From the NCBI RefSeq assembly GCF_022045235.1, contig NW_027266286.1, positions 59,830,001-59,894,000 on the forward strand: 64,000 nt of DNA, in the 5' to 3' direction. The DNA comes from Haliotis cracherodii (taxonomy: Eukaryota). Below the pieces are notes generated by a model that searched no databases, was not told the DNA's origin, and worked only from the letters and a program-made list of their open reading frames with translations. Shown here in pieces: positions 1,460 to 62,882 of the stretch; the first letter of the stretch is position 1; every line of letters starts with the position of its first letter. The position numbers were made by a program, and so were the translations under genes.

Positions 1460-1578
1460 TCATAGAACCAGTCACAGCCCAGGCTAGGCTGATCATCAGC
1501 ACCGAAAACAATTCCCTGCCAAAGGTGTTTGCAGACTTCACCCTGGAGGAGATAGAGGTCCTCTTGTCCAGGCAGCAG
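1460..1578 (+). CDS. VPS13: VPS13 exon w1
   Basis: tttcag|..IEPVTAQARLIISTENNSLPKVFADFTLEEIEVLLSRQQ|gtgaga. Confidence 0.9.
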
Positions 1579-4500
1579 GTGAGATGATGCATCAGAGGAG
1601 TGAGTGAATGAGTGTTTGTAGACTTCATCCTGGTGGAGATAGAGGTCCTTCTGTCCTCCTGTTGGTGCAGACTTCACCCTGGAGGAGATAGAGGTCCTTC
1701 TGTCCTCCTGTTGGTGCAGACTTCATCCTGGAGGAGATAGAGGTCCTTCTGTCCTCCTGTTGGTGCAGACTTCACCCTGGAGGAGTTAGAGGTCCTCCTG
1801 TCCTTCTGTTGGTGTAGACTTCATCCTGGAGGAGTTAGAGGTCCTCCTGTCCTCCAGTTGGAGCAGATTTCACCCTGGAGGAGTTAGAGGTCCTCCTGTC
1901 CTTCTATGGTGCAGACTTCACCCTGGAGGAGTTAAAAGTCCTCCTGTCTTCAAGTTGGTGCAGATTTCACCCTGAAGGAGTTAGAGGTCTTCCTGTCCTC
2001 CAGTTGGTGCAGACTTCACTCGGGAGGAGTTAGAGGTCCTCCTGTCCACCTGTTGGTATAGACTTCACCCTGGAGGAGTTAGAGGTCCTCCTGTTGGTGC
2101 AGACTTCACCCTGGAGGAGTTAGAGGTCCTCCTGTCCTTCTATGGTGCAGACTTCACCCTGAAGGAGTTAGAGGTCTTCCTGTCCTCCAGTTGGTGCAGA
2201 CTTCACCCTGGAGGAGTAAGAGGTCCTCTTGTCCTTCTGTTGGTGTAGACTTCACCCTGGAGGAGCTAGAGGTCCTCCTGTCCTCCAGTTGGTGCAGATT
2301 TCACCCTGAAGGAGTTAGAGGTCTTCCTGTCCTCCAGTTGGTGTAGACTTCACTCTGGAGGAGTTAGAGGTCCTCCTGTCCACCTGTTGGTGTAGACTTC
2401 ACCCTGGAGGAGTTAGAGGTCCTCCTGTCCTTCTGTTGCAGACTTCACCCTGGAGGAGTTAGATGTCCCCTGTCCACCTGTTGGTGTAGACTTCACCCTG
2501 GAGCAGTTCGAGGTCCTCCTGTCCACCTGTTGGTGCAGACTTAGCTCTGGAGGAGACAGAGGTCTTCCTGTACAGACAGGGGGCTTGAATAATGTTTAAT
2601 GCTTGCTCAATCATCCAGGTCGTCACAGTAACTGCAGTATCAGGATCACAGTGGGGAGTCTGCACATCCTACTGTGGCCACTTCATCCCCACTGGACTAC
2701 TGTAATGACAAGCAAACGAACATAAAGATGTATTATATCCTGGAATTCATGAAGTGATATGACTTTAGGAAACACAGGATTTGTGATCTTTGAGAAATAG
2801 TTTTAGTAAAGGTAATTTACACATTCATGGTTAAATACATTGCCAACTATCACTGTTTGTCACAACCAGATGTTGGTTTTGAGTCTGACAAGAAGGCTGT
2901 TATTATTGCTGGAGCATTATCCTCTGCACTCAAACCTCACTGGTTAATATGTAACTTTTTTCAGTTCCTGAATCTGTTGACACTGAGTGAGTCTTTCCAA
3001 CTTATGAGCATCAACCAGCGGTACAGGAAGTACCACCCTAACATCCCTCTCAAGGTCAGCCCAAGGTCATGGTGGCATTATGCCAACACAGCCATCTTGG
3101 AGGAGATGATCCGTCCCTACTCCTGGGAGAGAATTAAAGAACACAGGTACATAGTTGAATACTCTCTTGCTGATAGGTACTGTCAAATATGTGATGTAAA
3201 GGAAAATAATATTTGAAATAATGCTTTCCTCATATTGATGGAGTATATGCTTGCTATTTGTGCAGGAACCAATACCGGAAGTATAAGGACCTTTACAAGC
3301 GGAGCCTAGAACGACCAGACCATGAGTCCATTCGGAGTAAGATGTGGGAGCTGGAGGAAAATCTGGATGTATCCAACATACTGCTGGCCAGAGAACATTC
3401 CAAGGTGGAGGTGAGTGTACACACTGCTGGCAACAGAACATGCCAAGGTGGAAATGAATGTACACACTGCTGGCCAGAGAACATGCCAAGGTGGAAGTGG
3501 GTGTATTTTCTGCTGGCCAGAGAACATGCCAAGGTGGATTTGAGTGTATACACTGGTGGCAACAGAACATGCCAAGGTGTAGCTGAGTGTACACACTGCT
3601 GGCCAGAGAACATGCCAAGGTGAAGGTGAGTGTACACACTGCTGGCAACAGAACATGCCAAGGTGAAGGTGAGTGTATTCACTGCCTGCCAGAGAGATCA
3701 TGCCAAAGTGGAGGTTAGTGGACATTCTACATGCTTGAGAGGGGTGCATATTGTTCTGCAATGACCATGTTAAGCATAGCAAATACCAGTGGTGTTGTTC
3801 CATCACATTTCGTTGTTTTCCCTTGGCTGACAACACAACTAGATTGAGTAGACAATATTTAACTGCCAAAGACATATAAGGAGCATGTTCCAATCAGTAC
3901 AAAGACTGTATTTTGTTACGCCTTAAGGCTGTGTCACTATACATCAGTTTATCAACCTGTTTGTATATATCACTTCTGAGTCTCTCTTATTTTTTTAGTT
4001 TGCCCGTGAGGCCCCTGAACGAGCCAAGCATCGACCAAAGAAAGAAAAGAAGGGCTGGTTTAGTTCATGGTTTGGTAGCAGTGAAGATGTGGATGACTTT
4101 GAAATAACTGGAAAGGAGACACGTGAGTTTGTTTTTATTTTGAATCAGATACAAGTTCACTTATTCTGTTTTTGTAATTCATCAAATTTTAGTATTGATA
4201 TTCCAATTTATCATTCCAAACTGGCTTCCAAGGCAGTATCACTGCAATATGAAATTGCATCACAATGCTTTGCAGACCATTGTGATGTCAGCGTTTTATA
4301 TGACATCACAATCAAATGACATCATTAATCTCTCTGCCACGGAAGCTTGTTGTCTGTACTTTTTACACATAAGTCACTGCTTGTTACTGTTTACAAATTG
4401 TAATTGTTGGAAAGAATGATTTTTGATGATAATTAGAATTTTACCCTTGTGTGTTTTGATATCAAATATATCAACACTTGTCGATAAAAGTTTAATACTC

Positions 4501-7500
4501 TTCAACAAGCTATGGAGTTTTAAACTACAGTTGTTCCTCACAATAACACCCTTCTCGATACCGCGGATTCGGTTAAACCTTGGGGATAATGACTGGCTCC
4601 CATAAATTTATCAACAAGTGTTGATGTACTTGATGTCAAAGCACATGTGGGTAACAATTTAAGACTGGGGCAGTATATTGAAGAATTGAGAATTGGGTGA
4701 TATGGTGTATAACCCTTGTAACTCCCTGACAGAGGACTGGCTGGACAAACTGAGCAATGAGGAGAAGGAGAAACTGTATGATGGCATCGGCTACGACATC
4801 AACGCCAATACCCAGACATATGCCCCAGAGGTGAGTGGGTGCAGTGAGTCAGTGTGGCATGAACAATCCTGTTCCTACAGCTACAAGTATTAGATTGGCC
4901 AGTAGTCCCTTATATGTTACACAGTAAGGGTAGAGAATAGGTCTTTAGCAACCCATGCTTGCCGTAACAGGCGACTAACAAGATGGGGTGGGCAGGTTGC
5001 ATGTCATCATATCCCAATTGTGTAGACCGATGCTCAGGATGTAAATCACTGGATTGTCATGTCCTGACTTACAGCCTGATGTCATATAGCTGGAATATTC
5101 TGAGTGCGGCATTGGACAACAAACACACTGACAAACAAATGTTACACATGATGCCTCATTTCAGTTCCACTCATCAGTTTTATGTGTAAGGGCAATTCTT
5201 TGTCTCCTCTTCAGTGTTGTCTTGCAGTGTTGCTAGATTATATGAAAACCTCAATGGTTACTTGTTGAAGGCAGAATAAGTCTTTAGTACCCCATTAATG
5301 TTGTAAGAGAACAGTTCAGTACCAGATCATGTCATGACAATCCAGGGATTTACATCCTGAGCATCGGTCTACATCTGTCGTACATAAACATCTGTCGTAC
5401 ATAAACATTTCAGGCAGTCAGCACAAACCACGAAATTTATCTCAATTTATTTCAACTCTGTTTTTTTCACCAAAATTATATTCTAATAAGAGCCCCCAAT
5501 TTCCAATTTTGAGAGCGCCCTGGGCGCTTATTACGTCGAATACGGTAGCTAGAATATTGACCAAGGTCAGATATGAGTGGACTGCTGTTGACTGGTGTAA
5601 CACAACATTGGGTGAGTCCAGGTCTTGTCAGTGTCCTCTCTCTTCCAGTATGTGAAGCACAAGGTGCAGGTGATCCTGAAGAGCTGCTGCGTGTCCCTTG
5701 TCAACTACAGCAAGAAGATCCTGCAGGTGTCTGTCACTCACCTCCTGGCCACCTGGGAGGACCGACCCGCCACCGGTGCCTTCAGGTGGGTCAGCGGGAC
5801 ACCATTCCTGGCAGTCTTGGAGATAATCATTTACAGGAATTCACAGTTGGTGTCTAGTTACATGATTGATGCAGAGTACCAGACATTAACTATTTACGTA
5901 TTGACTCGCAGAAGATGCAGCTGATGTTTGGCTGAATATTATCATGGCAGATAATCTGCCATTTTCAACTGTATGACATAACAAAGGCCGGAAAGAATGG
6001 TTACCCAGATAAAAAAATCTTGTACATTCACCACTATAAAGGGGAGTTGAGGTAGCCTGATAAAAAAATCTTGTACATTCACCACTATAAAGGGGAGTTG
6101 AGGTAGCCTGATAAAAAAATCTTGTACATTCACCACTATAAAGGGGAGTTGAGGTAGCCTGATAAAAAAATCTTGTACATTCACCACTATAAAGGGGAGT
6201 TGAGGTAGCCTGATAAAAAAATCTTGTACATGCACCACTATAAAGGGGAGTTGAGGTAGCCTGATAAAAAAATCTTGTACATTCACCACTATAAAGGGGA
6301 GTTGAGGTAGCCTAATGGTTGAAGTTTTGGCTCTTCTCACCTTAACCTTGGGTTTGATTCCCTACATGCTACAATCTGTGGAGCCAGTTCTTGGTGCGCC
6401 CTGCATTGCTATGGCTGGAACATTGCTAAAATGGCGTAAAACCGAACTCACCCTCTCAATCACTGTTGCACAATATTGTGAAACTCATGGTGACATAGGA
6501 TGTCTTGTGAAACAGTGAATTCATTTAATAGGTACAGTTTTCATTAAAAAGTGTCTATTCCAAAACTTGCTTACAACCAGGCAGAATCCACAGAGGATAT
6601 TTTTTTGTTCTGTCTTGATCCACTCAACACGAAAATAAATACATGATACTTTTGTGTATGCCACTGTCAAAGTATCTGTTTAATCAATTTGCTGTTTGGT
6701 GTACATGTCAGCTGCTTCAACGTATAATGGATAGCTGTCAGTGCTGTAAATCCAATAACCTTGGTATCACGATCTGATAAATATGGAAATGAGGTAGCCT
6801 AGCAGGAACTACTTTTAATGAGCTCCATGCCTCAATGCAATGTGGCTGCTTGCTAAATAAACTGTTACCAACACCCCCAATAAGTTTAGGTTCTTTTCGA
6901 TGTGTGGATGTTTTTCTACACAAACATGTCTTCATAACAGAAACATACTCGGCTAATAACGTCTGTGTCTGTGTTTCAGGATCTCCTCCAACACAGAGAG
7001 TTTCTCAATCGAGGGGGCTTCCATTGAACACGAGCTCATCCCCATCCTCACCTCCGACATCGGAGTCTATGGTGCGTTCACGTCCTTGTACCAGCCAAAA
7101 AGATTCCTATCAAGTAGTAATGATAATCTGATCATTGTGATAACAGTACAACTAAAGATCAATAGATTGATCAGGGTTTCATAAGATAGATCTTGTTTTG
7201 AGTGTATGTGAGAAAGGTTAGATCATTATTTCCCCCCGCCACAATGTGGAAAGAGGATAAAGGAATAGGTGCTGTCCGCCCGTCACGTTTTGTTTCTGGA
7301 GCAGAACCCCCAAACCATGAGAGATATCTTAACTAAACTTGGCACATAGATAGGTCTCCTGGCGAACTGGTGCCTTTTGAAAGTTTGTGAATTTTTTAAA
7401 TTTATTTTTCGAGTTTCCACAGCAACGACTTTGACTTAGTCTGAAAATGGCAGTAGTGCTTGTTTCCAGAGCAGTTCTTGAAGAGCGTACAATATTACTT

Positions 7501-10500
7501 GCCCTGCAACCGGACATGTCATATTGGCGGGGGATATGAGAATTTCATGCTTTTTGTACCCTTTATGTCAATAAAACTTTTATCAGCAATACTTGTGTCC
7601 CCAGCCCCCTCAGTGAACCAGGTGTGCACGTTGGACTTCGAGGTGAAGCCGCTCTATGTGGATGCAGACTACTCCCTCAGTCTCAACATTCAGCCAGTTG
7701 AGATTGTTTATGATGAGGTGAGAAGTTCCTGAGTGTCATGAGTCTTCCATGTTAATTCCTATTTTATGAATCTAACCGACATTGGGCAGTTGTTTGTTTC
7801 AAGTGGGTACTTCGTGAGTTTTTTGGTATTAAGGCACATAGCCTATGGAATTCTGTCTTAGAATAGGCCCCTAGAAACCTAGGCTGTTCATAACAGGCGA
7901 CCAGATCGATTGGTGGTCTGGCTCAATGACTTGGTTGATTGACTTGGTTGATAACGTGTCTTCATTTCCCAAAGGCATGGTTTGTTGCTCACAATATCAC
8001 TTGATTGTCTGGTTCGGACTTGATTATTTACACGCCTCCATCACATAGATGGAATGTTCCCGAGTGTGGCGTTAAACAACAGACTCACACTTATCAAGGT
8101 ATATATTTGTGTCAGATTTAATGCAGCATGACATTCATTTTCAGCACTCTATCTTGGAGGTCACAATGTTCTTCAATACACATATTAAAGTATATTTTTG
8201 TGTCAGTTTGATGCAGTGTAACATACATTTCCAGCACTCTATCTCGGAGGTCACAGCTTTCTTCAACGTCCCCCATGGAGGGGTGGACATGAGGTCTGCT
8301 GCCATGGTGACGCTGCAGGAAGTAGCCAAGTACAGCCGGGCAGGGCTGCAGTATGCCATAGAACAGCACAAGGTATATAGAGATAATATGTCCGTACAAA
8401 TGATTGCAAGTAATTCCATGTCATTTTATTGGGTAACAAAGCAAAATGTTCTGCATTTATGTTTCCATAAACTGAAAAAAAAATATCCACACCTTCTAAC
8501 TGACTACTGTTTCCTGATTGGCTGATAATAGTTGGGCGGGGCTTGTGCTGCGTCATTGTACTGAACAGTGTCACTGATTTCCTATCTATAAAAATAATTG
8601 TGTTAATGATTAAATATGCAGTCTGTGAAGTTATTATTGTTGACATATATATTTATAAGATTCGACTTCAATATGTTTTTACATTAATAGAGGTATAAAT
8701 GTTAAAAAACTGTGTGCACACACATTTCAATTTTTTTATTTTCTCGTTTTTTATACCTCCATAATCTAAAAAAATATTGATCCATGAAAATCCGGGTTGG
8801 AATAGGTCTTCAGCAACCCATGTTGTCGTAAAAGGCACCTAACCTTGTCGTAAGAGGCGACTAATGGGATCGGATGGTCAGACTCACTGACTTGGTTGAA
8901 GCATGTCATCATATCCCAATTGTGTAGATCGATGCCTTGTACAGACTTGATTATTTACAGACCGCAGTCATATAGCTGTAATATTGCTGAGTGTGGAGTT
9001 GCACTCAATTCTTAAATGTACTGAACAAATAGTAAACCATGGTCAGGCTGAAATGTCATTGCCGCTATCACTTACCAAGTTTGTGTCTATTCATCAGCTG
9101 ATGAAGGTTTTTCATGTTGGTTTGTGTGTATTGATTTTCATGACAATAATATCTTCGTATGCATTCATCAACTGCATGTTCTTATGTCTGTTAAGCCACA
9201 CATGAATGAACTTTCTCTAACTTTCTACTCCAGTGTACAATTGTGTTGTGTTTCAGACAGTGCATGTCGCCCTGAACATGAGATCTCCGTACATCGTGGT
9301 GCCCGAGTTTGGTACATTGCACAGGTAAAACATTCCCAGGTTGTATGGAGGGCTTCATAGTCACCTGAATGTGACCTTACACCACACAGGGGTCGGGGTG
9401 GAGTCCAGGGTAGAATAGGTACGCTTGTCATATAAGCAACTAAATGGATTGGGTGGTGACTTAGTTGATTGTGTGTCATCGTATCTGAACATCTTGGACC
9501 AGTGGTCATATTGATCATTAAATCATTGATTTGTCTGGTCCAGACTGGATTATTTACAGGCGTTAAGGAACAAACCAATCTCATTAAAATCAGATTTTAG
9601 TTCTCGCTTTCGTGGAACAAAGATCTGAGGACATCCCATTACAGGTCCCGTCAGAACAACCTTTCCGACCAATCAGAGTTCTCAGACTCAGTTCAGTCTC
9701 ATTTCTGTGTGATCTTATATCTGGGAGACTTCCATAGATTAGCCTTGTTTACCAGTCCAGTGACTACTTAATTGTAGGAACAGTGCCAGTTTCTCAAGCT
9801 GGTGAAAGGGTGTCTGTATAGACGACATTTACAATGGTTTCATTCCATCAATCCGTATACTCTGTACAGGGTTCTTTTTAAACTGACCTCAGCTTTATGG
9901 TATTCATGTTAAGATACATACTCGTCAAGACGTCTCTTCTCTCTTCTGAAGAAAAATCAAGTTTCATCATGGAGTATTTAAATCTGGAAAAAACCTAATT
10001 CTGGAACTCATGAGACTTAACGTTATAAGGGCCCCATGACATGTATTCTTAATTTAAAAAATGTTTTCCTTTTTCAGAGGAGGAAATGTTTTGATAGCTG
10101 ATTTTGGAACACTGCGTATAGAAAGTGAATTACAGCCAAAAGATGTCTCCCTTGAAGTAAGTGTTACACAACCTACATAGTTAGTGGCTCTTGCCCAATG
10201 GAATATGGCCATTTCAGCACATGGAGTATATTTTTATACCAGTAACTGTAGTACAGACTCAACATTGAAAGAACTGTGTGGTCCATATGCAGATCATGAT
10301 GTTGTGATTAGATTTAAATTAGAGAACTCATGATGATATCTTATAGTAATGCTCAGCTTCCCATTGTTCTCAGAAGCAGTAGGTAGAGGGGTTTACGGCC
10401 ACAAGCCTTCTATCTATTACAAAGATTAACAATCAACAAAATTTTAATCTTTTGTTACAATCAGGGCAAAATTAAGATTCAAACATATATTCAGCTGATC

Positions 10501-16500: not shown

Positions 16501-19500
16501 AAGACGAAGAAAGAGAGTGTCCTCACTTCTCAGTCATCCAGAAATAGTGCTGGTGAGTGCAGCTGGTGCGAGCAGCCATCTTGAAAATATACATTTGGAA
16601 CATTTTTAAAAATGTAGTGCATCTTACCTGAGCCATCTAGGGTCACTTTTTACATGTTTACCTCTCTGAACTCGGAAGGACTATGAAATGAATGATATGG
16701 ATGATACCAGTGGTTTAAACTTTGCCTACAGGCTTTTTGTTGGATATGATAGGTTGCTGTCATGCCAGTCATAGGTGAGCTACAGGGCCTCATTGGTCTG
16801 TGTTTTCTGGCGTAAGGCCTACTGATGTGACTGTTAGCTGAAGTGAGGTGAAATGGGGTTTAATGTCGCGTCCAAGATTATTGCACTTATATGGCGATGT
16901 GCATGCACGTGTGTGTGTGGTTGCTTGTACTAGTCTGGGCTGATGCCGATTTATTGTGTTAGCCCACTGAGATACCATGCTGCAGTTTAACATGAATACC
17001 CCACTCAGACACAGTATACTGACTCCGAGCCGACCAATCCTTGTCTTAGCCCCTTAATGCCGAGCGCCAGACAGGGTAACAACAAATACCATCCTTTAAC
17101 ATCTTTTGGTATGACAAGGCCAGGGATCAAACCCCGGACCTTCCTCTCTCCGGGCGGACACTCTACCACTAGACCATGGAGGCGGTCCGACTGTTCGGTA
17201 CTTTTATCAAGTGTACGTATGTAATTTATGCTTGTTGTTATCTCAACAAGAGATAGTCCAGCAAAAACACTTTTGTAAAATGGCTGTGCATCAACATGCT
17301 GACCTAATGTTTCAGGTGAGGAGGTGTTCTTCTCCGCATCAGATCATTCAGACGAGGATGTGGATGAGTGGTCTGAGTGAGTTGGAAATAATTATTTGAT
17401 ATTAATTAAGTTATCTTTTTGTGCACAATCACTGTAGTCACTTACAATTGAGTAGTGGTTTGGGGTAGCAGGTCATCCTTTTGATCAATCTTGAGAACAT
17501 AGCTAGCAGTAAAGTAGGAGGTGGTCTTGAGTTGTTGTTCATAATACCTGACAGTCCACTGAAATCAGGAGACATGTCTCCAGTCTTGCATGCACTGGGA
17601 AATGCCTGGGTTTCAGATGTTTTTCTTGAAAACGCCTTCAATACAAGATAACCTTGAAAAGGCCTGAAAGTAAGAGTAGTAGCACTGACAGGCCTCGGGG
17701 TTAGAGCAATTGTATGACAGACCTGGAGGTAAGAGTAATTGCATTGAAAGGCCTGTAGGTAAGAGTAATTGCATTGAAAGGCCTGTAGGTAGGAGTAATT
17801 GTATGACAGGCCTGGAAGTAAGAGTAATTGTATGACAGGCCTGGAGGTAAGAGTAATTATATGCCAGGCCTGGAGGTAAGAGTAATTGTATGACAGACCT
17901 GGGGGTAAGAGTAATTGTATGACAGGCCATATGGGTTCAATGTATTTAGCCCATTCTTTAGAGACCTATTTATGTAAATGTTTAACCTCTCTAATAAGCA
18001 CTTTTGGAAAAAAATGTGGAGAGGAAAATATGCAGAAGTATTTTGTTGCCTCTTTGTTGCAGTTTCCTGCACATCAAGCCTGTAGACGACAGCACTTTCC
18101 CTTCCAACTCGGTGAACATCCTGGTGCGGATGACCTTGGGGGAGTTTGTCATCAACCTGTCCAGGGTCATGGACAAGCACGAGACTCCATATCTGATGTT
18201 CCGCGTCAACCGGCTGCGCATTGACTCAGCGTTGACAGTGCATGGCTATGCTGTCCACGCCACGCTGGGAGGTGTGCAGCTCGTAGACAAGATCCATGTC
18301 GGTAAGGCACATGGCTTGTTCCTGGTCTGATTGGAACACCTCTTTTAGACATGTCATTTCCCTGAGTTATTTCTCTGATTTCTTGGCCCCTGAGGTAGAC
18401 TGGAGCGGCTTTCACTTTGTTATAAACAAATGCAATGATGTCTTGTATTACCTTATACAAACAATGCAGAACACACCAGCTGAAATGTTGTTGAGTGCGG
18501 CATTAAACCACAAACAAACAAACACTTCCTTGACCCAGTGTTTCGGTATAGGCAGCTGTATGTGTGTCCTATGTTCTCTCCACAGGCTCATCCGGAGAAT
18601 ACATGGAAATCTTGGGCACGAATTCCGCGACAGATCTGGTCTCCATTGTTTACAGAAAGGTGGGTGCAAGGAATGTCATTCAGAATGATCACCTCCGACC
18701 TAGCCACCCACAGTCCCTTGTGGTCAACAGTGAAAGTGCAGATAGAACAGACCTCATTGGCGTCCTTGGTCCAGTTCTGTTTCTTCTTTACAAAAGCCCT
18801 CTAAAAGACATCACAGAGAAATGACCTATGCAAATGACTCACCATTTGTTCAAACTTTTAACAATCGTGAGCTGTCAAGAATTAATGCTGTCACCAAGTT
18901 TTTACCTGATTCAGGCAAATGACATATCCTTTCACAGAATATAGCTTGGAACCCTATTCACTCAATCCCAGTCTACAGGAAAACATGGTTGTGTTCCAGG
19001 TGGAGGCGTCGTGTCCTGACTTCAGTGACGGTTACGGCGGCGTAGAGCATGCCCTGCTGCTGAAGCTGCACACGATGTCGGCACTGTGCGACCAGGCCAG
19101 CATGATCTACCTCAACGCCTTCATCCAGGGGCTCATCACCAGGTATGCCTCACTTCTTTCAGGGGTCATCACCTGATAGGACTCACTTCTAATGAACTCA
19201 AGGACATACATCGGTATTTTTTGGTTTATACATTTGACTGTCTGAGCCAGAAGTCACAATCTGATGTTTATTTATGTTTAGATGATAATCAGGTACTAGG
19301 TTTACCTGAAATAATAAACATTCAGCATATTGTTTAACAATAGTAATTTCTTCCAGTCGTCTAAGGCGCCGCAATTGGGAATGCAGAGTTGCATCCCTTG
19401 GGCATGCCAGAAACTATGATTGTGGGCTTGAATCCTGGTTTGTCACGATTAATTTTCTAGATTTGTCAGCTCCATACCCGTACTCGTTGGTATCACCAAA

Positions 19501-43500: not shown

Positions 43501-45256
43501 CTTGCTGCCTACCTCACATGTTCTCTCTGTCCATCACTTGCTTCCTACCTCACATGTTCTCTCTGTCCATCACTTGCTGCCTACCTCACATGTTCTCTCT
43601 GTCCATCACTTGCTGCCTACCTCACATGTTCTCTCTGTCCATCACTTGCTGCCTACCTCACATGTTCTCTCTGTCCATCACTTGCTGCCTACCTCACATG
43701 TTCTCTCTGTCCATCACTTGCTGCCTACCTCACATGTTCTCTCTGTCCATCACTTGCTGCCTACCTCACATGTTCTCTCTGTCCATCACTTGCTGCCTAC
43801 CTCACATGTTCTCTCTGTCCATCACTTGCTGCCTACCTCACATGTTCTCTCTGTCCATCACTTGCTGCCTACCTCACATGTTCTCTCTGTCCATCACTTG
43901 CTGCCTACCTCACATGTTCTCTCTGTCCATCACTTGCTGCCTACCTCACATGTTCTCTCTGTCCATCACTTGCTGCCTACCTCACATGTTCTCTCTCTCA
44001 ATCACTTACTGCCTACCTCACATGTTCTCTCTGTCCATCACTTGCTGCCTACCTCACACGACCTCTCTGTCCATCACTTGCTGCCTACCTCACATGTTCT
44101 CTCTGTCCATCACTTACTGCCTACCTCACACGACCTCTCTCTCCATCACTTACTGCCTACCTCACACGACCTCTCTGTCCATCACTGACTGCCTACCTCA
44201 CACGACCTCTCTCTCCATCACTTGCTGCCTACCTCACATGTTCTCTGTGTCCATCACTTGCTGCCTACCTCACATGTTCTCTCTCTCCATCACTTGCTGC
44301 CTACCTCACATGTTCTCTCTCTCCATCACTTGCTGCCTACCTCACATGTTCTCTCTCTCCATCACTTGCTGCCTACCTCACATGTTCTCTCTCTCCATCA
44401 CTTGCTGCCTACCTCACACGACCTCTCTGTCCATCACTTACTGCCTACCTCACACGACCTCTCTCTCCATCACTTACTGCCTACCTCACACGACCTCTCT
44501 CTCCATCACTTGCTGCCTACCTCACACGACCTCTCTGTCCATCACTTACTGCCTACCTCACACGACCTCTCTCTCCATCACTTACTGCCTACCTCACATG
44601 ATCTCCCTGTCCATCACTTACTGCCTACCTCACATGTTCTCTCTCTCCATCACTTACTGCCTCCCTCACACGACCTCTCTGTCCATCACTTACTGCCTAC
44701 CTCACACAACCTCTCTGTCCATCACTTGCTGCCTACCTCACACGACCTCTCTCTCCATCACTTGCTGCCTACCTCACACGACCTCTCTGTCCATCACTTG
44801 CTGCCTACCTCACACGACCTCTCTGTCCATCACTTACTGCCTACCTCACATGATCTCCCTGTCCATCACTTACTGCCTACCTCACATGTTCTCTCTCTCC
44901 ATCACTTACTGCCTCCCTCACACGACCTCTCTGTCCATCACTTACTGCCTACCTCACACGACCTCTCTCTCCATCACTTACTGCCTACCTCACATGTTCT
45001 CTCTCTCCATCACTTACTGCCTCCCTCACATGTTCTCTCTCTCCATCACTTACTGCCTGCCTCACATGATCTCTCTCTCCATCACTTACTGCCTACCTCA
45101 CACGACCTCTCTGTCCATCACTTACTGCCTCCCTCACACGACCTCTCTCTCCATCACTTGCTGCCTATCTCACACGACCTCTCTGTCCATCACTTGCTGC
45201 CTGCCTCACACGACCTCTCTATTATACCTCCAGTCAAATCCACCTGTTCATCACTT

Positions 45257-45287
<31 letters not shown>

Positions 45288-48200
45288 CACTCTCTTGACA
45301 GATGTTTATGTACATACAGATAAACTAATTCATTTAGAAGTTCAATGTGACAAGAGTGACTTATGCAATTAAAGCAATGCTTCTCTGCAGCACACCGGAC
45401 AGTCATGGTTTTGTGGAGCGGGCTCTGGCTGACGCTGGGCACACTCTAGTCAGTGCTGGAGCCTTTGTATTTGACGATGACGACGACTACCTGTCCGGTG
45501 ACCTGGTGGACAAGCACAGACTGAAGCTGCAGGTAGACATAGGGCAGACATAATATAATGTGGAAGATTTTACTAGTGCTTCCAGTGCTACCTGACATAG
45601 CACTTGACATGTTCTTTGATGCCAGATGCAGTGCCCATAGAAAACGATATATTATAAACAAAATTGATAAACAAATAAGTTTAATAGGTATTCATATTTT
45701 ATTTAATGCATGCTGACAAATAAATATCATATTTTTCTTGATGTGTAATGGTTAGATATAAGGGAACAGTTATAACTGGCAGCAAGTATTTGAGCTGACA
45801 TCCTACATATATACTGATCAAAAGAAGTTAAGGACCACCTGCTTATTTCATATTACTATAGTTGTTATGCCATGGCAGATTATATCGTGACACACTAGTA
45901 ACTTACTTCTTATGTAATATTGGTGATATAAAGTACTTATACTGAGAGAAAGAAGTAAACATTCTTTTGCATTATTGTATGCTTGTTCCCTTTATCTTCC
46001 CATCAGTATAACTGTATACTATAATCAGTCAGAGTTAGTCGTATACCTAGTTTTGGCGTCATCATCATGCTGATGTCTGTGGTTCCAGGTGGATGGGTTT
46101 GATCCACGTCCGTCACTGCTGCACAAGAGAGCCTGTAGGAGACTGTTGCCTCTCACACCGACCAAGGTGAGGCATGATCTGGGGTAGAAAAGGCCTTCAC
46201 CAACCCATGCTTGCCATAAAAGGCGACTATGCTGGTCGTAAGAGTTGACTAATGGGATCGGGTGGTCAGGCCTGGTGACTTTGTTGATGCATGTCATCGA
46301 TCTCAATTGCATGGATCGATGCTCATGATGTCAATCACTGGATTGTCTCGTCCAGACTCGATTAGTTAACAGACAGCCGTCAAATAGCTGGAATATTGTT
46401 GAGTGCGGCGTTAAACCACAAACAAACAAAAGCATTCAGGGCAGTGGGGTAGTTGTTTAAGTGTCTACTGTCCAACGAAGGCCCAGGTTTGATTCTCCAC
46501 AAGGGTACAATGTGGGATGCCCATTTGTGGTGTCCCCTGCCGTGATATAACTGGAATACCATACCACAGGCAAACTTTATCAACCACTTTACATTCAGTG
46601 AGAGAAGTCACTCAGGATAGGTGCTGCTGGGTGGCACAGTGGTTAGTGCTGTTGTTCGGTAGTTGCTAAGTTTGATCCTCACGATGGTAAAACATGTAAA
46701 GCTGTTGGTGGCGGGTTAATCTATTGCTTAAAACATTTGCTTGTCAGTCAGTAACAGAGGTTCAGTACCCCACATAGGTACAATGTTGTAAACCTATCCT
46801 TGATGTCACCTGCTCTTATATTTCTGAAATATTAGTAATAGTTATTATTATCCTCCCTGACTTAATTAACAATCAGTATTAACAAATGTGACCCACCAGG
46901 AGAAAATGGACCTTATTGGAACAAGGATACAGTTAAGCTATGACCTTAAGACATTTGATGTCATAGCCGTGTGTGATGTCATGTATCTCTGTATTAAATT
47001 TGAATTTAAGCTTGTGAATTGTATTTTGTATTCCGAAGATGCTGTAGATATCAAATATTATGAAAAGTCAAACTGTGATTTTTCACCCATAAGGTCCCTT
47101 ATCTCATGGTTGGTCACAAATATTAACAAGTTCCTTGTAGTACTAAATATACCTCTCCAATGAAGTGTAGATATCGCATATCTCCCTGAGTAATGTCTAC
47201 CCTATATTCCCTCCCTGCAGTCCGAGGACATGGAGACCGAGGTGGGTACTGTGTACAAAGTGTATTCGTTGTCCAGTGTCCTTGTGAGTAGTTGTAGTCT
47301 TTCTTCTTCTTTGTATCAGTCTGTTTATTTCAGAATGTCCATAAGAACACACAGAGGTTTACGTCTTCATATCACTCTTCTCAACATATTGTCATGTCTG
47401 TACCTTGCAGAAGGTGTTCCAACTAAGCCCTGGCCTGTCCGTTCATGTGGTTACATACAGAACTGATCTGATCTGATGTCATGTTTTTATAACATTTCTA
47501 CAGTACAGGGCCTACTTGTACAAAGCAATCTTAGTGCAAAGACTGTTATAAATCTAGGTCAAAGTATGGGAGTAAAGATGATCTTGGCGCTACGATCACT
47601 TTGTTGCAAGGGGGGCCCAGTATTGATATAGATTTGGATTAATCAAAATTCCAGTATTGACAGAGATTTGGATTAGTAAAGATTCCTGTATTGACAGAGA
47701 TTTGGATTAGTCAAGATTCCAGTATTGACAGAGATTTGGATAAGTCAAGATTCCAGTATTGATAGAGATTTGGATTTGTCAAGATTCCAGTATTGACAGA
47801 TTTGGATTAGTCAAGATTCCAGTATTGACAGAGATTTGGATTAGTCAAGATTCCTGTATTGACAGAGATTTGGATTAGTCAAGATTCCAGTACTGACAGA
47901 TTTGGATCAGTTTACACTGTATGTAAATTGGATTCCGTGCATAGTAATTTTTTCTTATTGCTTGTGTTGTGACCAATTACATCTAGTGTACTTTTGACAC
48001 AAGACACCTGCATGCCTGAAAATAGCATGACTCCATCCTTGTCTGTGATTAATACCTTGACAACAAAGCCACAACACACAACAAAGGCACAACAAAGATT
48101 CTATGGAACATGCTATTGAAAGACTGAATGGTTGCACTGACTGCTGAATATGATGAGTATTTGGATGTGTGACCACCGTGGAAACTCAGCCCCACCGAAC

Positions 48201-51200
48201 ACCTGTATTATTGTGTGTTGTCATACCTAGCCAGTAGGGATCTTTCTGCACTATAGTCAGTCAACCATCAATACTAGTTTTGTAATATTTTATGTCCAAA
48301 TAATGATTTTTTCTTCATTGTAATTATGTAGTTTTGTGACAGCTGACATGATCTTGTAGTGGGGTAAGAGCAGACGACTTAACGTCTCACAACAATGACA
48401 TAATGTGTTTCAAACGTACTTGCTGCATGCATGACCAAAGTCACCAAGGTCATTGTTGTGGGACTTTAAATCGTGTCGGCGGTCACAAACTTACATGATA
48501 ACAATGGAGAAAACATCTTTAATCAGACATGAAATATTTCAAAACCAGTAATTTTAGTTAGGTCACTGATTATTATTCAATAATTACCAACTTTCGTCAC
48601 GTGACTGTGTTTCATGGGAAATTATTGTGAAAAACTGAGTGCCCAATCTGATGGTTGATGGACTATAGTGACAGATTGTCCATTTGTTTGATGTATGTAC
48701 AGGCAGCAGTGATGTTTCTCTAGCTGTAAAATTGCTGATAATTGCCACTCACTCATCAGCCGTTATGTTATGAAACAGCAGCAGTATGCTATGGTGCATC
48801 TTGATTATCTTTTCCACTGTACTACTCAAAATAAGTCAAAGAACACCCGATCCTTTCATTGTACTATAGTTAATCTGTCATGGTATGACATATGAACCAT
48901 AGTAATATGAAAGAATTGTGTGTTCTTTAACATTTTTTGGGTAGTATATGCCAGTACATATTTTGTGTTTCCTTGTGTCTGTCAGTTCATATTTTATAAA
49001 ATCATGTTCCTGCATAAGATGATGAAAGTATTTTCAGACACATGTCTGTGTGTATTGTGTTCAGCAACATTGCTGACTTTGAGCTTTGTTTTCAAGACTG
49101 GACACATACAGGCTTGTGTGGGTCACCTTGTTAGAGATCTAGTGTTGACCGACCTTTGTGTTAATTCCAGAACAGCACTAGGTATTGTCTCGTGCTTGAC
49201 AACTTGTTTGTTGACCTTGACCTTTGTGTTTCCAGAACAGCACTAGGTATTGTCTCGTGCTTGACAACTTGTTTGTTGACCTTGACCTTTGTGTTTCCAG
49301 AACAGCACTAGGTATTGTCTCGTGCTTGACAACATGTTTGTTGACCTTGACCTTTGTGTTTCCAGAACAGCACTAGGTAGTGTCTGGTGCTTGACAACTA
49401 GTTTGTGACCTTGACCTTTGTGTTTCCAGAACGGCACCAGGTATTGTGTCGTCCTTGACATCGATATGTGGCAGGGCAGGAAGGTCATCAAGCTGTTCTC
49501 CCCTCTACAGGTGCGGAGTCTATCAACATCCAACATAAAAAACTAACAGGAACACTCTAAGTTTATGGATCTTGCCAGAGAGTTATAAACGTGTTATGAA
49601 AAACCCTGGTTAGAAATATTTTTGTTAGGTTGTTTACAGTTTACAGATTGATCTAGGTTTTATGTGTTGTGATCAAATAAGGTTTCGAGAATTGCATCTA
49701 TATATTTGTAAGCTCAATAGGAGATGTAACTCACTGCTTGATTAATGCAGTGTTTTGTTGACTGTCCAATTTTTTTTATGACGTATACACATGTGTAAAG
49801 AGGCCAGATACCATAGTTAAAAGGCTGTTACATTTTCAACTGAATGTGAAGTTGCTGTCATATATACAACAAAAAAGAAGTTAAGGACCAGGGTCATGGC
49901 ATGACAGATTAACTATAGTTCCTGATATTCTTTTGAGCAGTATATGTATTGAACCGTGACTAAATCCTGCCAGGTTCAGAACAGTCTGACCATGTCCATC
50001 GACATCTCCTGCAAGACAGAAGACCTCAAGAAATACAAGTCAACACGACCTCTGGCCTCTAACAATGAGTACACCCGGCTCAAGACACTGGCGCCACAGG
50101 AAGTGTATTATCTCCCCTTGTTTGTGGCCTACCACTGCCCCCTGTTTGTCAAACCAGCAGATATCAGGTATAGTGTTTGAGATGGTGGCAGAACCTTTAC
50201 AACATGTTGGCTATTTAGAAAATAGTGTTTCTGTTCTTGTAAACTGTATACTGCTTCTGTATTATTTGTAGGTGTTTTCTGAGAATATCATTTGGAGGTG
50301 TTAGATTGTAGACAGAGTTTTTCCAGGTTCAAATTTGCTGGGTTAATGAAAAGGCAGCAGTGTCTGCACCGATCAGTTAATATATGTTTACTGCCAAAAG
50401 ACACGAACCATAGAAACATATAGAGAAGAATGTATGTTAAGAAGATATGATCCCAATTTGTACCAATTAATGACAAAACTAACAATCAGTCAAGTGTTAC
50501 CACAGAGTGTCTCTATTCTTTAACGATATGATGCACATGATTTCCAAACTTTACTGGCTAATCCTGCACAAGACAAATGGAGCATCTTGAGTCATGGATC
50601 TATGATGTCACATGTGATGCGTTCATGAGCATATCGGTTCACACAACATACCAATCTTATATCTCCTGGATATGAGTAAGTCTTCATATATTAATCAACA
50701 TGTATGGTATTCACGTTTCTTTTGGCGGTGAGTATTTATACCGTGGTAGTGATATTTGTTTTAGTATAGGATCAGTATGTCTGTGCCCGATAGTTGGTGA
50801 TTATGGTGCTCAATGATGACAAGATATAGTTTTGGCAGTGATTTACACATACACTATGTTCAGCGAAATCATGTATAGTCCTGAATACATCTGAAGGCTT
50901 TGGGATGCAGATTTTTTCATGAAATGTGGTAGCTTGTTGTACTGTTGTATGTTCCACAATCCTGGTGAGGTCTCCAACTCTTCAACATGAGTGAGTCAGT
51001 ATGTTTTTTTACGCCACTTTTACCAATATTCCAGCAATATCACGGTGGGGGACACCAGAAATGGGCTTCACACATTGTACCCATGTCGGGAATCGAACCC
51101 GGGTCTTCGGCGTGATGAGCGAACACTTAAACCACTAGGCTACCCGACCGCCCCCTTAAACATGAAAAACATTAAAAATTGATTTAATGAACTGCAACTG

Positions 51201-54200: not shown

Positions 54201-57200
54201 GAAAACAAGTTTCGAATAGCATGAAGCTGCAATGTTAGTTTGAATATTTTTTACTTCCCTGTCATTTCTGAGCTCAATGGCATCTACACCCAAAAGGGTG
54301 ATCTTGCGAGGGTATATTTGTGTTCTTTGGCAGCTTTTGTTTGCTAAAGTCGAAATTTTCGAGTTGAGCTTGTAAAGAAATGAAGCCAATTGTTTTTGAA
54401 AGTGGACATCTGGGTCAAGAACCCACTCATCCTTCCATTTAGATTAATCATTCAAGGGTATCCTCACTCAGTATAAGATCTGATTTTAATGAGATTGACT
54501 CATTTTAATTCTGTATTTTATGTAGCCTACTCATCAGAATGGTTACTACTCACAGTGAATACTCCCATACAGTTTCCTCTTGTTTCTGAAATATCACCAG
54601 AAAATTTTACACTCTCAATTCATTATTTTCTACTATTTACAATGTCCTTATGTGAAACATTTGAATTTGTACCATCTATTTCTGTGTTGTGTTGTAGGGG
54701 TCAATGTCTGATGCAATGTTTGAGTGTAGCAGTTCGACCAATCCACTCCTCTTCAGGTACAAGAAACACAAGAGGAAAAAGGTAAGTCATCCATAGAAGG
54801 GAGCACGTATCTATTGTAGAGTGTAAGTAACTAGCAGAGCGTAAACAACTGTAGCAGAGAGTACAGACCTGTAGCAGAGTGTAAATAACTGTAGCAGACC
54901 AGAGACAACTGGAGCAGAGTATAGATTTGTAGCGGAGTGTAAATAACTGTAGCAGAGCATAGACAACTGTAGTAGGGAGTACAGATCTATAGCAGTGTGT
55001 AAATAACTGTAGCAGAGCATAGCACAACTGTAACAGAGAGTACAGATCTGTAGCAGAGCATAAAAAATTGTAAAAGAGTACAGATCTATAGCAGTGTGTA
55101 AATAACTGTAGCAGAGCATAGACAACTGTAGTAGAGAGTACAGATCTATAGTAGTGTGTAAATAACTGTAGCAGAGCATAGCACAACTGTAACAGAGAGT
55201 ACAGATCTGTAGCAGAGTGTAAATAACCTTAGCAGAGCATAGACAACTGTAGCAGAGAGTACAGATCTGTAGCATAGCATAAACAACTGTAACAGAGTAC
55301 AGATCTGTAGCAGAGCATAAACAACTGTAACAGAGTACAGATCTATAGCAGAGCGTAAATAACTAGCAAAGCATAGACAACTGTAGAAGGGAGTACAGAT
55401 CTGTAGCAGAGTGTAAATAACTGCAGCAGAGCATAGCACAACTGTAACAGAGAGTACAGATCTGTAGCAGAGTGTAAATAACCTTAGCAGAGCATAGACA
55501 ACTGTAGCAGAGAGTACAGATCTGTAGCATAGCATAAACAACTGTAACAGAGTACAGATCTGTAGCAGAGCATAAACAACTGTAACAGAGTACAGATCTA
55601 TAGCAGAGCGTAAATAACTACCGTATTTTCTTGAGTATAGTGCGCACTTTTTTTCGGAAAAACACAGCTGTGTAGAAGGGGGTGCGCATTATACACGAAT
55701 TATGAGTTTGGATGTTTTTTCCTCCCATGGAAAGACATTACGTACCGTGAGCACGAAACACCGGAAATACCATGTCAACAAATCCATACTGAAGTACGCA
55801 AAATAATTATGTAATTACACTGTCTGTCTATAAAAAGTGTTCATTGTATTTCTGGACTTATGTTTGTAACTTACTTCATTAATTTTATTCAAAATTCCTT
55901 ATAATATTGTTTTAATTAATTTCGGCGAAATCGTGTGTGAAGCGATCGGAAGATCGCACAACTCACCGTTATTAACAGCAACCACGGTCAGAATACCGCT
56001 ATTGACACCTTGAAACGAACTTTAGTTGACAGAGAAAGGATACATATATCATAAATGACATACTTTGACTTGTTAAAAGTCATATTTGTTTTTGTTTGAC
56101 GATTCTATGTCAACATGAAATTCTCGCGCTCACGTGCTCACGTGCGCGTGAGCCTTGACGGTGACTGGTCAGACATGTTCCATGTAAAAAATAATACCCG
56201 GGAATAGCGATCAGCTGCTTCGCTTAGGGTTATTATTATTTTAAATATGTTTTGTAAAGGCTGCATATAATTAAGAAAATAATGGAATATATTATTCCTG
56301 ATAAATAAAATAGTTTCAGATACAATTGTTGCCGATCCTTGCATTAAAAATCCTATAAAGTTATATCACTGGGTGTGTCTTGACCGAATCACCGGTCGAT
56401 TCCAAGAAAACGTGTGTACAGCTGATTGCTGTTTCCGGCTTAGTTTACGAGAAAATACACAAGGTAATCTTAATCCCTAGATATAAAACAATGCCTAGCA
56501 GAACAATAAATACTATTTAAACGGTAAATAAACATGTCTGGTGATTTTTTATCTCAAATTTCGAATTTGTACTGACGAAGTTTCTCAGCACCCGTTCGTT
56601 TGCCGGACTTCGCTGAAAGGGTACGGTGTAAATTTTTTCTGCGCATAATATTCAAATTTTTTTTTTCCAAAATATTGAACCCCATAGAGGGGGGTGCGCA
56701 TTATACATGGGTGCGCACTATACTCAAGAAAATACGGTAGCAAAGCATAGACAACTGTAGAAGGGAGTACAGATCTGTAGCAGAGTGTAAATAACTGCAG
56801 CAGAGCATAGCACAACTGTAGCAGGGAGTATAGAACTGTGAGAGAAGTCACTATTTAAAACCATCAATTTACTCCATCATGTGACTAATAATTATTTAGG
56901 AGAAATCACTAGTATGTTCTCTATCTGTTGAATCTTCTCCCCAGGCCAAGGTGAGAGTGTACGACTCCAAGTGGTCCCAGTCTTTCTCCCTGGATACCGT
57001 GGGGAGTGCCGGAGTAGTGGTGTGCCACGACAAGGAACGGGGCCGCAAGTACATGGTAGGTGGCTTGTAGGTGAGGTGAGTGGCTAGTTGTTTGTTGGGT
57101 GGGTGGCTAGTTGTTTGTTGGGTGGGTGGCTGGGTTGTTTGTGGTGTGGGTGGCTAGTTGTTTGGGGGGTTGGCTAGTTGGTTGGGTGGGTGGCTAGTTG

Positions 57201-60200
57201 TTTGGGTGGGTGGCTCATTGGTGGGGTGGGTGGGTTGTTGGTGGGTACATGGTAGGTGGCTTGTAAGTGGGGTACAAGATAGGTGGGGTGGGTAGCTAGT
57301 TTGGGTGGGTGGGGTGGGTACATGGCAGATGGCTAGTAAGTGGGATACAAGAGAGGTGGGTTCTTGATGGGGTGGGTGGCTAGGTGATGGGTGGGTGGGT
57401 TGTTTGTGGGGTGGGTACATGGTAGGTGGGTAGGGTGGCTAGTTGATGGGTGGGTGGGTTGTTGGTGGGGTGGGTTACTAGTTGATGGGTGGGTGGGTTG
57501 TTGGTGGGGCCAGGTACATGATAGGTGGCTAGTAAGTGGGATACACGACAGGTGGGTTGTTGGTGGGGTGGGTGGCTAGTTGTTTGGGTGGGTGGGTTGT
57601 TTGTGGGGTGGGTACATGGTAGGTGGCTAGTTAGTGGAGTACAAGATAGAAGGGTTGTTGGTGAGGTGGGTGGCTAGCTGATGGGTGGGTGGGTTGTTGG
57701 TGGGGTGGGTGGCTAGTTGATGGGTGGGTGGGTTGTTTGTGGGGTGGGTACATGGTAGGTGGGTAGGGTGGCTAGCTGATGGGTGGGTGGGTTGTTGGTG
57801 GGGTGGGTGGCTAGTTGATGGGTGGGTGGGTTGTTGTGGGTGGGGCCAGGTACATGTTAGTGATAAGATAGTAGTGCCAGGTATGTGGTAGGGGAACACA
57901 ACCTACCCAAGTGCACCTATGACAGTCAAATCCTATTTCGCTATCTAATCGTGTGCCCTGTCTGACAGTTCATGGTAAAGAGCGAGATGTCCAACTTGAA
58001 GCTGTCCAAGATCATCACCATCCTCCCGTTCTTCCTCGTCATCAACTGCACAAAGCAGAAGCTGCGCTACATGGAGGAGAACGAGGACGCCGACCTGTGG
58101 TTCGACCTCCCAGTCGGAGAGGTAAAGACGTCATCTCACTGCTCACTGCTCATCTCAACCAAAACAGAGATTAGTGTGGCATTCATTATGATATAATAAT
58201 AAAAAAAAGGGAATTCAAACTTGATGTCATAAATATACAGGTTTTTTAACCTAACCTAAATGAACAGCATATGTAGAGGTAGAATGTAGTGTAAACACCT
58301 ATGATTAAGAAGTCTGTATTTAGGAGATAAACATACTGTGTTTACAAGGTAGAGTTAGGTTACCCGTAGATTTAACCGCGCTTAATTGAATTTGGAACCG
58401 AACTCGCAGCATGAGGTTTCAAATGTTAAATGTAGCGCAGTTCAATCTACAGGTAACCTAGCTCTACATTGAAAACAGAGTATGTTTATCTCCATTCTAA
58501 AATGACTAAATAAAACGCGAACTCCTTGGTGTTAGCAAGTATGTTGAGTCAAGTGGCATGAGTTGAGTCCAGTGTTTTGAGTGGGTTGTCGATCTGAATT
58601 ATGGAATCACCGGCAACAGCCTGTAAACAAAACATGGCGCTGTATATGCTCAAGCAGTTTGTTTACACCGTAATACCTCACTCAAACATATGACAGGCAT
58701 TGAAACATATAAGCATGGCTAACATGAAGTGGGCATCCCTAAAGAAAACTAAGAAAGCTTTGCAAGGCTTTTGTTCTACACCGAACGACACCATTATGAC
58801 GTCATATCGCTCACTGTGACGCAAAAGATATGACATCACAGTCGTATATAAAAAATGTGCCAAATACCAAGCTCTCTGTTGTCATTCTCTTTGTAGATTT
58901 CTATTGTGTTTTCTGCACAAAATGTATTGCCACACATCCTTTGAATATTGTAGTAACCGCATCTGTCCATTTTGTAACCTGTAATTGTAGATATGATTTT
59001 TTAAATATGCCCACTGACAATGACTGAAAAAAAGTACTATTCTATGAATATTAGCTTCCACAGTAATGCGGCCGTCAAACTAGCTGTTTCAATCAGAGGG
59101 GGTTTATTGTGATTTAAATAGCCTCTGATTGACCAATCAGCATTGAGTAATTTCCAAATTCATGGTAGAATTAAGTTTAATATTGCATTGACCAATTGAA
59201 TAATGTTCATGTAGCTGAGTTTATGCCACATAAGAGTCTTGGATTTGTGTGATGGTAGATATGTATGATGTTGCAGTGTCAACCCTTCTGGCCCACAACA
59301 GACAACTACAGCATGTACATGAAGTACGAGAACAGCAACGTCGTGTCTCAACACTTCCCCATCAAGAAGCCGCACAACACTGTGCTGCGTATGGACCAAG
59401 GGGTCAGTCCACACATACACTTCTCATGTCCATGGGGAGACCACTTCACACCATTACACATATCATTAGTAGGATTATATAGTTGTCAAAAGAATTCTGT
59501 CCGTCCGTCCTTCCGAGGACATTTTGATATGAGACCTATAACTTGAAAACTACTACATTGATTCTTTTCAAACTTGGTGGACACTTTCTATACCAATAGG
59601 AGAGATGTTTTGCGATTTCTTTATTTGGATATTCTGAAAAATCTATTGTAAAATATTTTACTCAGAATTATTTTACTTAAACATTTGTGCGACCTACAGC
59701 TTGAAAACTTCTTCATGGATTCTTTCAAATTTAAGGAACACTTTCTATACTAATTGGAGAGGTGCAGTGCTAAGTTTGATTTTGATATGTGTATTTTCTG
59801 TTTTTCATGTTTTGAACTTATGATGTTTTTGTACTTCGACATTTGTGCGACCTATAACTTGAAAACAACATCATGGATTCTTTTCTGTATGTGGGTACAG
59901 TTTCTATGCCGAAAGGAGAGGTGCAATGCAAAGTTAGAATTTGATAAGTGGATTTTCTGAGAAACATGTATACACCCCCAACCTATGATGCCATTACTAT
60001 ATTATGTTATTTTGCTTTTTAAGAGAATCCGGGTCAACGTTAAGTCATTGACTTGTGTATCATTGTATAATTTGGGGTACATATCTTTTGTGGAGAATTA
60101 CATGTTTCAGTTTGTCCTTAGGATTAAGAATTTGATGGTAAAAAAAAGCAAACTTAAACAGAAAATCAGGTGAGCTACAGAGCCCCTTGGCTGTATGTTT

Positions 60201-62846: not shown

Positions 62847-62882
<36 letters not shown>

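Follow-up and report, generated by a model that had tools for sequence, protein, structure and literature searches.

Tandem arrays in the introns of a VPS13A/C-like gene of the gastropod Haliotis cracherodii were found to copy the gene's own exon ends and splice sites. The gene runs through the window, by which we mean the whole stretch of 64,000 nucleotides analysed here (contig NW_027266286.1, positions 59,830,001 to 59,894,000, forward strand); its exons are numbered w1 to w58, and array copies set off from the exon are called echoes. Membership of these arrays in the class of repeats named mirages (PMC3087553, PMC3902484 and PMC1557585, to judge by the parts of those papers available) is close to certain. 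We put at about two in three the probability of the fuller reading, that the arrays are mirage minisatellites, neutral by-products of a genome rich in tandem repeats, and are silent since the exon-adjacent copy is the one spliced.

Window exons were placed by hand, with one 1-nt correction at w56 to obtain AG/GT ends. The 58 exons, all bounded by AG/GT, join into a frame of 2,484 amino acids with no stops, and their numbering agrees with that of an earlier note on this DNA. Single exons gave Pfam matches to VPS13_N, VPS13_M and VPS13_VAB. The joined frame was 63% and 51% identical to P0001, a 1,712-residue protein of the gastropod Nucella lapillus for which VPS13C is the top match among solved structures (E 2e-105). 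Judged by these matches, the window covers the central part of a VPS13A/C-like lipid-transfer gene; the assignment was left at "A/C-like" because P0001, the single relative retrieved, is not a full-length VPS13. A purpose-written spliced aligner run with P0001 recovered 67 of the 68 hand-placed VPS13 junctions, a favourable benchmark in that the splice matrix had been trained on the same exons, and 34 introns across w8–w42 were common to the window gene and the Nucella protein alignment. Exons w2–w6 and w9 were represented in spliced contigs of other samples.

Window arrays were called with Tandem Repeats Finder (TRF), and six of them cross an exon–intron junction: the donors of w3, w19 and w36 and the acceptors of w9, w31 and w46 (Table 1). 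The earlier note, which had reported exon ends or splice sites copied into the intron, was correct at all six. Copies within the window arrays differ among themselves by 4–22%. Each array crosses at most one junction and holds 5–35 exon nucleotides, and no whole-exon duplication with both splice sites was found among them; the w46 units contain both AG and AG/GT. At w1 and w53 the same claim stood in part. Exon-end copies are present at both, those of w53 having been found as 20-mers, but the w1 units lack the donor: in the TRF array there (1620–2571, 49 bp × 19.7), 20 units repeat about 39 nt of the 3′ part of the exon with the donor excluded, and the broken exon end is retained in the last unit only. 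Because the repeated 49-bp unit has no donor, w1 counts as a derivative of a mirage and not as a strict one. In a 1.7-Mb cross-comparison, none of the six junction-crossing units of the window, and none of 40 from the dynein genes described below, matched another locus; by this comparison the junction arrays are not transposon-borne. The w3 stretch had one match in the genome (1.18 Gb, 80 contigs).

The earlier note also held that the exon keeps the functional copy while the echoes decay. The first half agrees with w3 and w9, where the real site is used (see below), and otherwise follows from geometry, because the copy at the exon alone rebuilds the original mRNA. The second half was contradicted. 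GT or AG was retained at 17 of 23 echo junctions (w3, w9, w19, w31, w36, w46, w53), and at least one echo was as strong as the real site at each of w3, w9, w31, w36, w46 and w53, as scored with a matrix trained on the window gene's own 58 sites. The w3 echoes at +215 and +258 scored 12.5 against 11.8 for the real donor, the w9 echo acceptor 5.7 against 3.8, and the w31 echo acceptor 13.3 against 13.4; three echoes at w46 and four at w53 equalled the real-site score. Decay was present at w1, at w19 and in three of the seven w3 copies. Across 45 arrays, GT was kept in 307 of 331 donor echoes and AG in 65 of 71 acceptor echoes, figures mildly biased toward intact sites by the 67% likeness that our echo finder requires. 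Selection to silence echoes, looked for over the 45 arrays as excess change at GT/AG relative to neighbouring positions, was not found; in donor echoes the GT positions change at 3–5%, within a range of 2–29% over positions, and are among the less changed. A steady decay with distance showed up weakly, rho being positive in 19 of 29 arrays, and the distal copy was slightly more diverged (0.12 vs. 0.085, P = 0.05). Splicing at an intact echo site is predicted to bring in a premature stop for 17 of the 18 such sites (counting w15), and the w9 echo acceptor would add 30 residues in frame.

Contigs of other samples were compared over positions 2900–9400 in four runs (X3, X7, X12, X14), with joins read from the record coordinates. 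We guessed X12 and X14 to be RNA runs and used only their exon-joining contigs; X14 carries the same species label as the best DNA-matching samples, and X7 is another species. One X14 contig joins 3263–3408 to 3997–4122, so that the real w3 donor was used, and w9 is joined at its real acceptor, 8233, in contigs of both X14 and X12. Record spacing at w9 in X12 excludes 90 extra bases, in a species where the w9 duplication is not established. Tolerance through splicing, one of the readings offered in the earlier note, is supported at both echo junctions covered, among the contigs listed. The possibility of assembly artefacts, which that note had raised, was answered in favour of real arrays at these two sites only, in short-read contigs: one X3 DNA contig runs through the pair of w9 copies, and X3 and X7 each contain the two ends of the w3 array, within which their contigs break. 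Because both samples hold both ends, the w3 array is likely to be older than the split of the X3 and X7 species. At position 3399 the exon has T in the window and in X12, and both X7 and the echoes have G; the w3 echoes likely preserve the older exon letter. The X7 sequence joins 6010 to 6259, and about five of the six units of a mid-intron 51-bp array (6008–6313) are missing. Minisatellite turnover is recent, and because X7 is without most of this array it is not confined to junctions but occurs mid-intron as well. High X12 depth over the w3 array was considered as a sign of echo use and rejected, since collapsed repeat contigs had been summed and the DNA run X7 rises alike.

We compared the TRF arrays with random placement, as the earlier note had proposed. 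Every array was reduced to a single unit, which was then assigned a random position, wholly exonic ones being disallowed. In the window, 2.5 of the 28 arrays would be expected to cross a junction and six do (P = 0.03); once arrays borne by interspersed repeats are set aside, the excess was weak (6 of 22 against 2.9, P = 0.051), and with w1 and w53 added post hoc it was 8 of 22 (P = 0.003). The window had been picked for showing the pattern. The independent set comprised 18 dynein heavy-chain loci of the same genome, annotated with relatives, with 894 accepted introns (570 under a strict filter) after 13 conflicting introns were dropped. Tandem arrays make up about 14% of this DNA, at 32.5 arrays per 100 kb. 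From 416 arrays of period at least 10 (three wholly exonic ones already out), removal of 82 repeat-borne arrays and 43 outside accepted introns left 291; ten further arrays cross unaccepted junctions (four donor, three acceptor, three junk). Junction-crossing arrays numbered 40 in 15 of the 18 genes, or 4.5% of the 894 introns, compared with 6 of 57 introns in the window (P = 0.04). The pooled dynein enrichment was 1.56-fold for all arrays, 1.36-fold without repeat-borne arrays and 1.3-fold in accepted introns, and the gene-bootstrap confidence interval (CI) of the last value, 0.97–1.59, includes 1. Of 148 arrays within 100 nt of a junction, 40 crossed it against 41.6 expected. We concluded that junction-crossing arrays occur genome-wide, that the window gene is a rich example, and that array density explains most of the pattern.

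Results differed between the two kinds of junction. Donor-crossing arrays numbered 30 against 15.6 expected among the 291 (1.9-fold, P = 4e-4, CI 1.3–2.5), whereas acceptor-crossing arrays numbered 10 against 15.2 (0.66-fold, CI 0.30–1.08), and the difference was significant (30:10, P = 0.002). The bias toward junctions suspected in the earlier note was therefore upheld as a modest donor-sided excess, but not at acceptors, where crossing is not enriched, and not within 100 nt overall. Two of the ten acceptor-crossing arrays lack a real acceptor echo; they were retained, which is conservative for the skew. Arrays starting 0–25 nt after a donor were 20 against 12.4 (1.6-fold), and those ending 0–25 nt before AG were 32 against 12.6 (2.5-fold, P = 2e-6, CI 1.56–3.55). 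Arrays lying 26–200 nt off were close to expectation (112 against 101.5, about 1.1-fold), and those more than 200 nt off were depleted (87 against 133.7; classes 0.5- to 0.7-fold). The polarity persisted at higher TRF scores and longer periods. By majority, ten genes were donor-sided, three acceptor-sided and two tied, and the donor:acceptor ratio stayed near 2:1 at four exon-side identity cut-offs (26:11, 19:8, 15:8, 12:6). The donor excess was confined to arrays of at least four copies (22 against 8.9; 8 against 6.7 with fewer), acceptor-crossing arrays with fewer than four copies were 2 against 6.3, and the pre-AG peak was also seen in low-copy arrays (12 against 5.2). Crossing units had a higher GC content (0.48 vs. 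0.40), and copy number increased with GC (rho 0.21, P = 4e-4); a GC-stratified test was set aside as confounded, since crossing units contain exon. A model of older arrays near exons drew no support from percent match (median 93 vs. 90), and homogenisation resets the clock.

These data can be joined in the explanation that we favour, that of neutral mirage minisatellites. Tandem arrays are so dense that some units cover a junction by chance. The initial duplication would arise through slippage or unequal exchange and then undergo ordinary minisatellite turnover. The exon-adjacent copy is used at two junctions and would be used at the others. Echo GT/AG sites erode no faster than their neighbours, so that selection for silencing is not visible. 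Splice-site order may then filter which arrays survive: it is an even bet that downstream echo donors would lose to the real donor, as in the human F7 gene, and we hold with the same evenly balanced confidence that upstream echo acceptors, which would be met first by 3′ scanning, would compete and be purged more often. Such a filter predicts the 30:10 skew. More tentatively, and at somewhat less than even odds, splice-site order may leave a genome-scale footprint on where minisatellites lie, in which arrays cross 5′ sites at about twice the chance rate, pile up 2.5-fold within 25 nt of 3′ sites and seldom cross AG, with repeat expansion itself focused on exon edges.

Several points weigh against this account. 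The filter is insufficient, because removal cannot lift the donor-crossing or the pre-AG class above expectation; a further bias by position is required, acting at exon edges on how arrays arise, grow or survive. Candidate biases are that GC-rich exon-containing units may grow more, that the TG-rich acceptor tract may slip, and that exon proximity may protect from deletion. Donor-crossing arrays are 1.5-fold in excess even relative to the 26–200 nt class (P = 0.01). The skew was 14:8 in the strictest junction subset (P = 0.29), 12:7 in the nine best-referenced genes and 3:3 among the strict arrays of the window, and at the two highest identity cut-offs the Fisher test gave P = 0.14 and 0.23. 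The dynein junctions are homology-based rather than RNA-based, they represent one gene family, and the repeat mask was built from 1.7 Mb only. The RNA check covers two of the eight echo junctions, with the real site used in the contigs listed, and contigs lose rare forms.

The bias at exon edges could instead be one of mutation, with duplications born or growing preferentially at splice junctions and selection merely trimming them; R-loops, polymerase pausing, nucleosome edges and allelic recombination starting in conserved exons are conceivable routes. We regard this as unlikely, though it is the main rival. Its best evidence is the sharpness of the local peaks (1.9-fold donor-crossing, 1.6-fold post-donor and 2.5-fold pre-AG, against 0.5- to 0.7-fold beyond 200 nt) and the survival of the pre-AG peak in low-copy arrays and at higher TRF scores. 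However, arrays of fewer than four copies show no enrichment in crossing, the excess lying in expanded arrays, and composition could drive that growth, since crossing units are GC-richer and copy number tracks GC. Slippage may just be more frequent in the TG-rich acceptor tract, and longer survival beside an undeletable exon yields the same pattern. At the other extreme, junctions might be crossed at exactly the array-density rate, which would suit the pooled interval that includes 1 (0.97–1.59), the local null (40 against 41.6) and the window P of 0.05. Pure chance is nonetheless very improbable, given that the intervals for donor-crossing (1.31–2.54) and pre-AG arrays (1.56–3.55) exclude 1 and that donors and acceptors differ (P = 0.002).

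Echoes might also be retained as functional decoys that adjust VPS13 output by way of alternative splicing linked to nonsense-mediated mRNA decay, or, at w9, that add 30 residues. Most echo sites are intact and strong, a premature stop is predicted from 17 of 18 echoes while w9 is in frame and stop-free, and GT/AG is among the less changed positions in donor echoes, as this explanation would have it. Yet the arrays are young (median 93% alike), so that intact signals are expected without selection, and the contigs listed use the real sites. The Nucella protein has its repeats at other junctions (w30, w33) than the window species, and echoes were silent in amphioxus by reverse-transcription PCR and in F7 minigenes, according to the passages available. 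We consider such a function improbable. That the arrays are assembly artefacts has next to no probability: although the cross-sample check is limited to two of eight sites and to short-read contigs, the copies differ by 4–22%, the X3 contig spans the w9 pair, and the w3 array ends were recovered in two other samples, one of them from another species.

The repeat class is already known, and individual arrays look harmless and are probably neutral. About one intron in 22 of the dynein genes has a junction-crossing array, which would extrapolate to thousands genome-wide. The donor/acceptor polarity with its pre-AG peak is testable and is relevant to the spliceosome's choice among identical sites; if the footprint is true, mirage-rich invertebrate genomes would be a natural experiment with thousands of identical competing splice sites. 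There is also a practical caution, in that echoes can enter gene models as coding. In the Nucella VPS13 protein P0001, a word scan found the start of exon w30 three times and that of w33 twice, with low-complexity spacers, at residues about 893–1061 and 1213–1250; two of the w30 copies are preceded by acceptor-like residues. As read from the protein only, these repeats are probably acceptor echoes mis-called as coding in the public gene model.

Table 1. The VPS13A/C-like gene and its exon-end and junction arrays (positions within the window).
Feature	Positions	Strand	Description
VPS13A/C-like gene, exons w1–w58	1460–62842	+	continues beyond both ends; w59 acceptor at 63992
w1 exon-end array	1612–2585	+	first copy lies 87 bp downstream of the one in the exon; 49-bp units × 19.7 follow
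w3 donor mirage	3376–3724	+	43 bp × 8.1; real donor after 3410; GT in 4/7 echoes
w9 acceptor duplication	8087–8266	+	90 bp × 2; echo AG intact, in frame, stop-free
w15 donor mini-echo	16549–16576	+	13 bp × 2.2; TRF score <50, excluded from tests
w19 donor echo	19119–19190	+	33 bp × 2.1; GT lost
w31 acceptor duplication	28793–28964	+	91 bp × 1.9, 96% alike; use would frameshift
w36 donor mirage	32968–33101	+	37 bp × 3.6; 5 exon nt in unit; GT at +37, +73, +110
w46 acceptor mirage	49143–49460	+	65 bp × 4.9; AG in 4/4 echoes
w53 donor echoes in G-rich array	57046–57860	+	six junction 20-mer copies; GT and identical 9-mer in 4/6

Arrays at 20938–21194, 22772–23019, 26820–26861, 54818–55620 and 63265–63983 begin or end 5–37 nt from a splice site with no crossing, a class likewise enriched in the dynein genes. 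At the w58 donor there begins a (GAT)n microsatellite (62839–62890), whose repeats are without GT. The mid-intron 29-bp × 9 array at 17658–17928 contains a donor-like motif scoring up to 9.5, with eight sites above 5 and no upstream exon found; it may be a relic of an exon, lost or alternative, or have arisen by chance. By eye, an interspersed element of about 1.1 kb (about 55620–56740) splits a 20-bp array after w52 (54818–56839), and a copy resembling it lies in the intron before w31 (27640–28790), directly upstream of the w31 duplication. About 4.7–5.6 kb upstream of the window (L026) is a 54-bp × 17 array with a unit donor score of 11.1, which is probably one more donor mirage belonging to the VPS13A/C-like gene, at a putative exon. 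Between w45 and w46, positions 47221–47283 form a candidate extra exon of 63 nt (AG/GT scores 7.2 and 5.8), in frame and stop-free when inserted, which the earlier note omitted. The minus strand of the w27–w28 intron (24395–26474) holds a short stretch that may resemble a minor-spliceosome small nuclear RNA of the U6atac type. Among the dynein loci, positions 83–120 of the dynein AAA_6 profile match three times within 1.7 kb at L150 (G000:C23:72312142-72313785), which may be an exon duplication or a large echo.

Mirages have been described as tandem repeats spanning exon–intron boundaries in amphioxus Adh3, the globins BflGb6 and BflGb9, troponin C and PGBD5, with splicing reportedly undisturbed, in the passages available of PMC3087553 and PMC3902484. 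The earlier note knew of no systematic description of such duplications, and in this it was mistaken in so far as the class has a name; no systematic survey of mirages or of donor/acceptor polarity was found in the open-access literature, supplements and subscription papers being outside that scope. As in those amphioxus passages, the units here span the boundary at either exon end, AG/GT is retained in many copies though not in every one, splicing seems to proceed normally (here at the two junctions covered), and the distal copy is slightly more diverged. Unit length (33–91 bp) lies between the 10–72 bp and the 150–160 bp reported there. The present arrays differ in their gastropod host, in the eight cases within one gene and, relative to the same passages, in the counted rate (4.5% of 894 introns) and the donor:acceptor skew.

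Two human repeats have comparable anatomy in the parts of the reports available. In the 37-bp variable number tandem repeat (VNTR) of F7 intron 7, the first unit contains the real donor, the pseudo-donors after it are identical and functional yet go unused, and the most upstream donor wins (PMC1557585); w3, w36 and w53 are built in the same way. For F7 the mechanism was established through mutagenesis experiments in mammalian cells, whereas for the present arrays it is proposed, and F7 concerns donors only; according to the same paper, scanning is widely accepted at 3′ sites. The CBS 31-bp VNTR c.1444_1467+7(16_21), with 24 exon and 7 intron bases in 16–21 repeats (PMC2630376), likewise has a donor-spanning unit and, unlike our arrays, a documented length polymorphism. 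Lastly, intron gain via tandem duplication of proto-splice sites (Rogers; Zhuo et al.; Gao and Lynch, as cited in the part of PMC3087553 available) would draw on the same raw material of duplicated AG/GT, which the w46 units hold. In contrast to that model, neither an intron nor an exon is seen to have been gained here, and the window gene shares its 34 introns over w8–w42 with Nucella.

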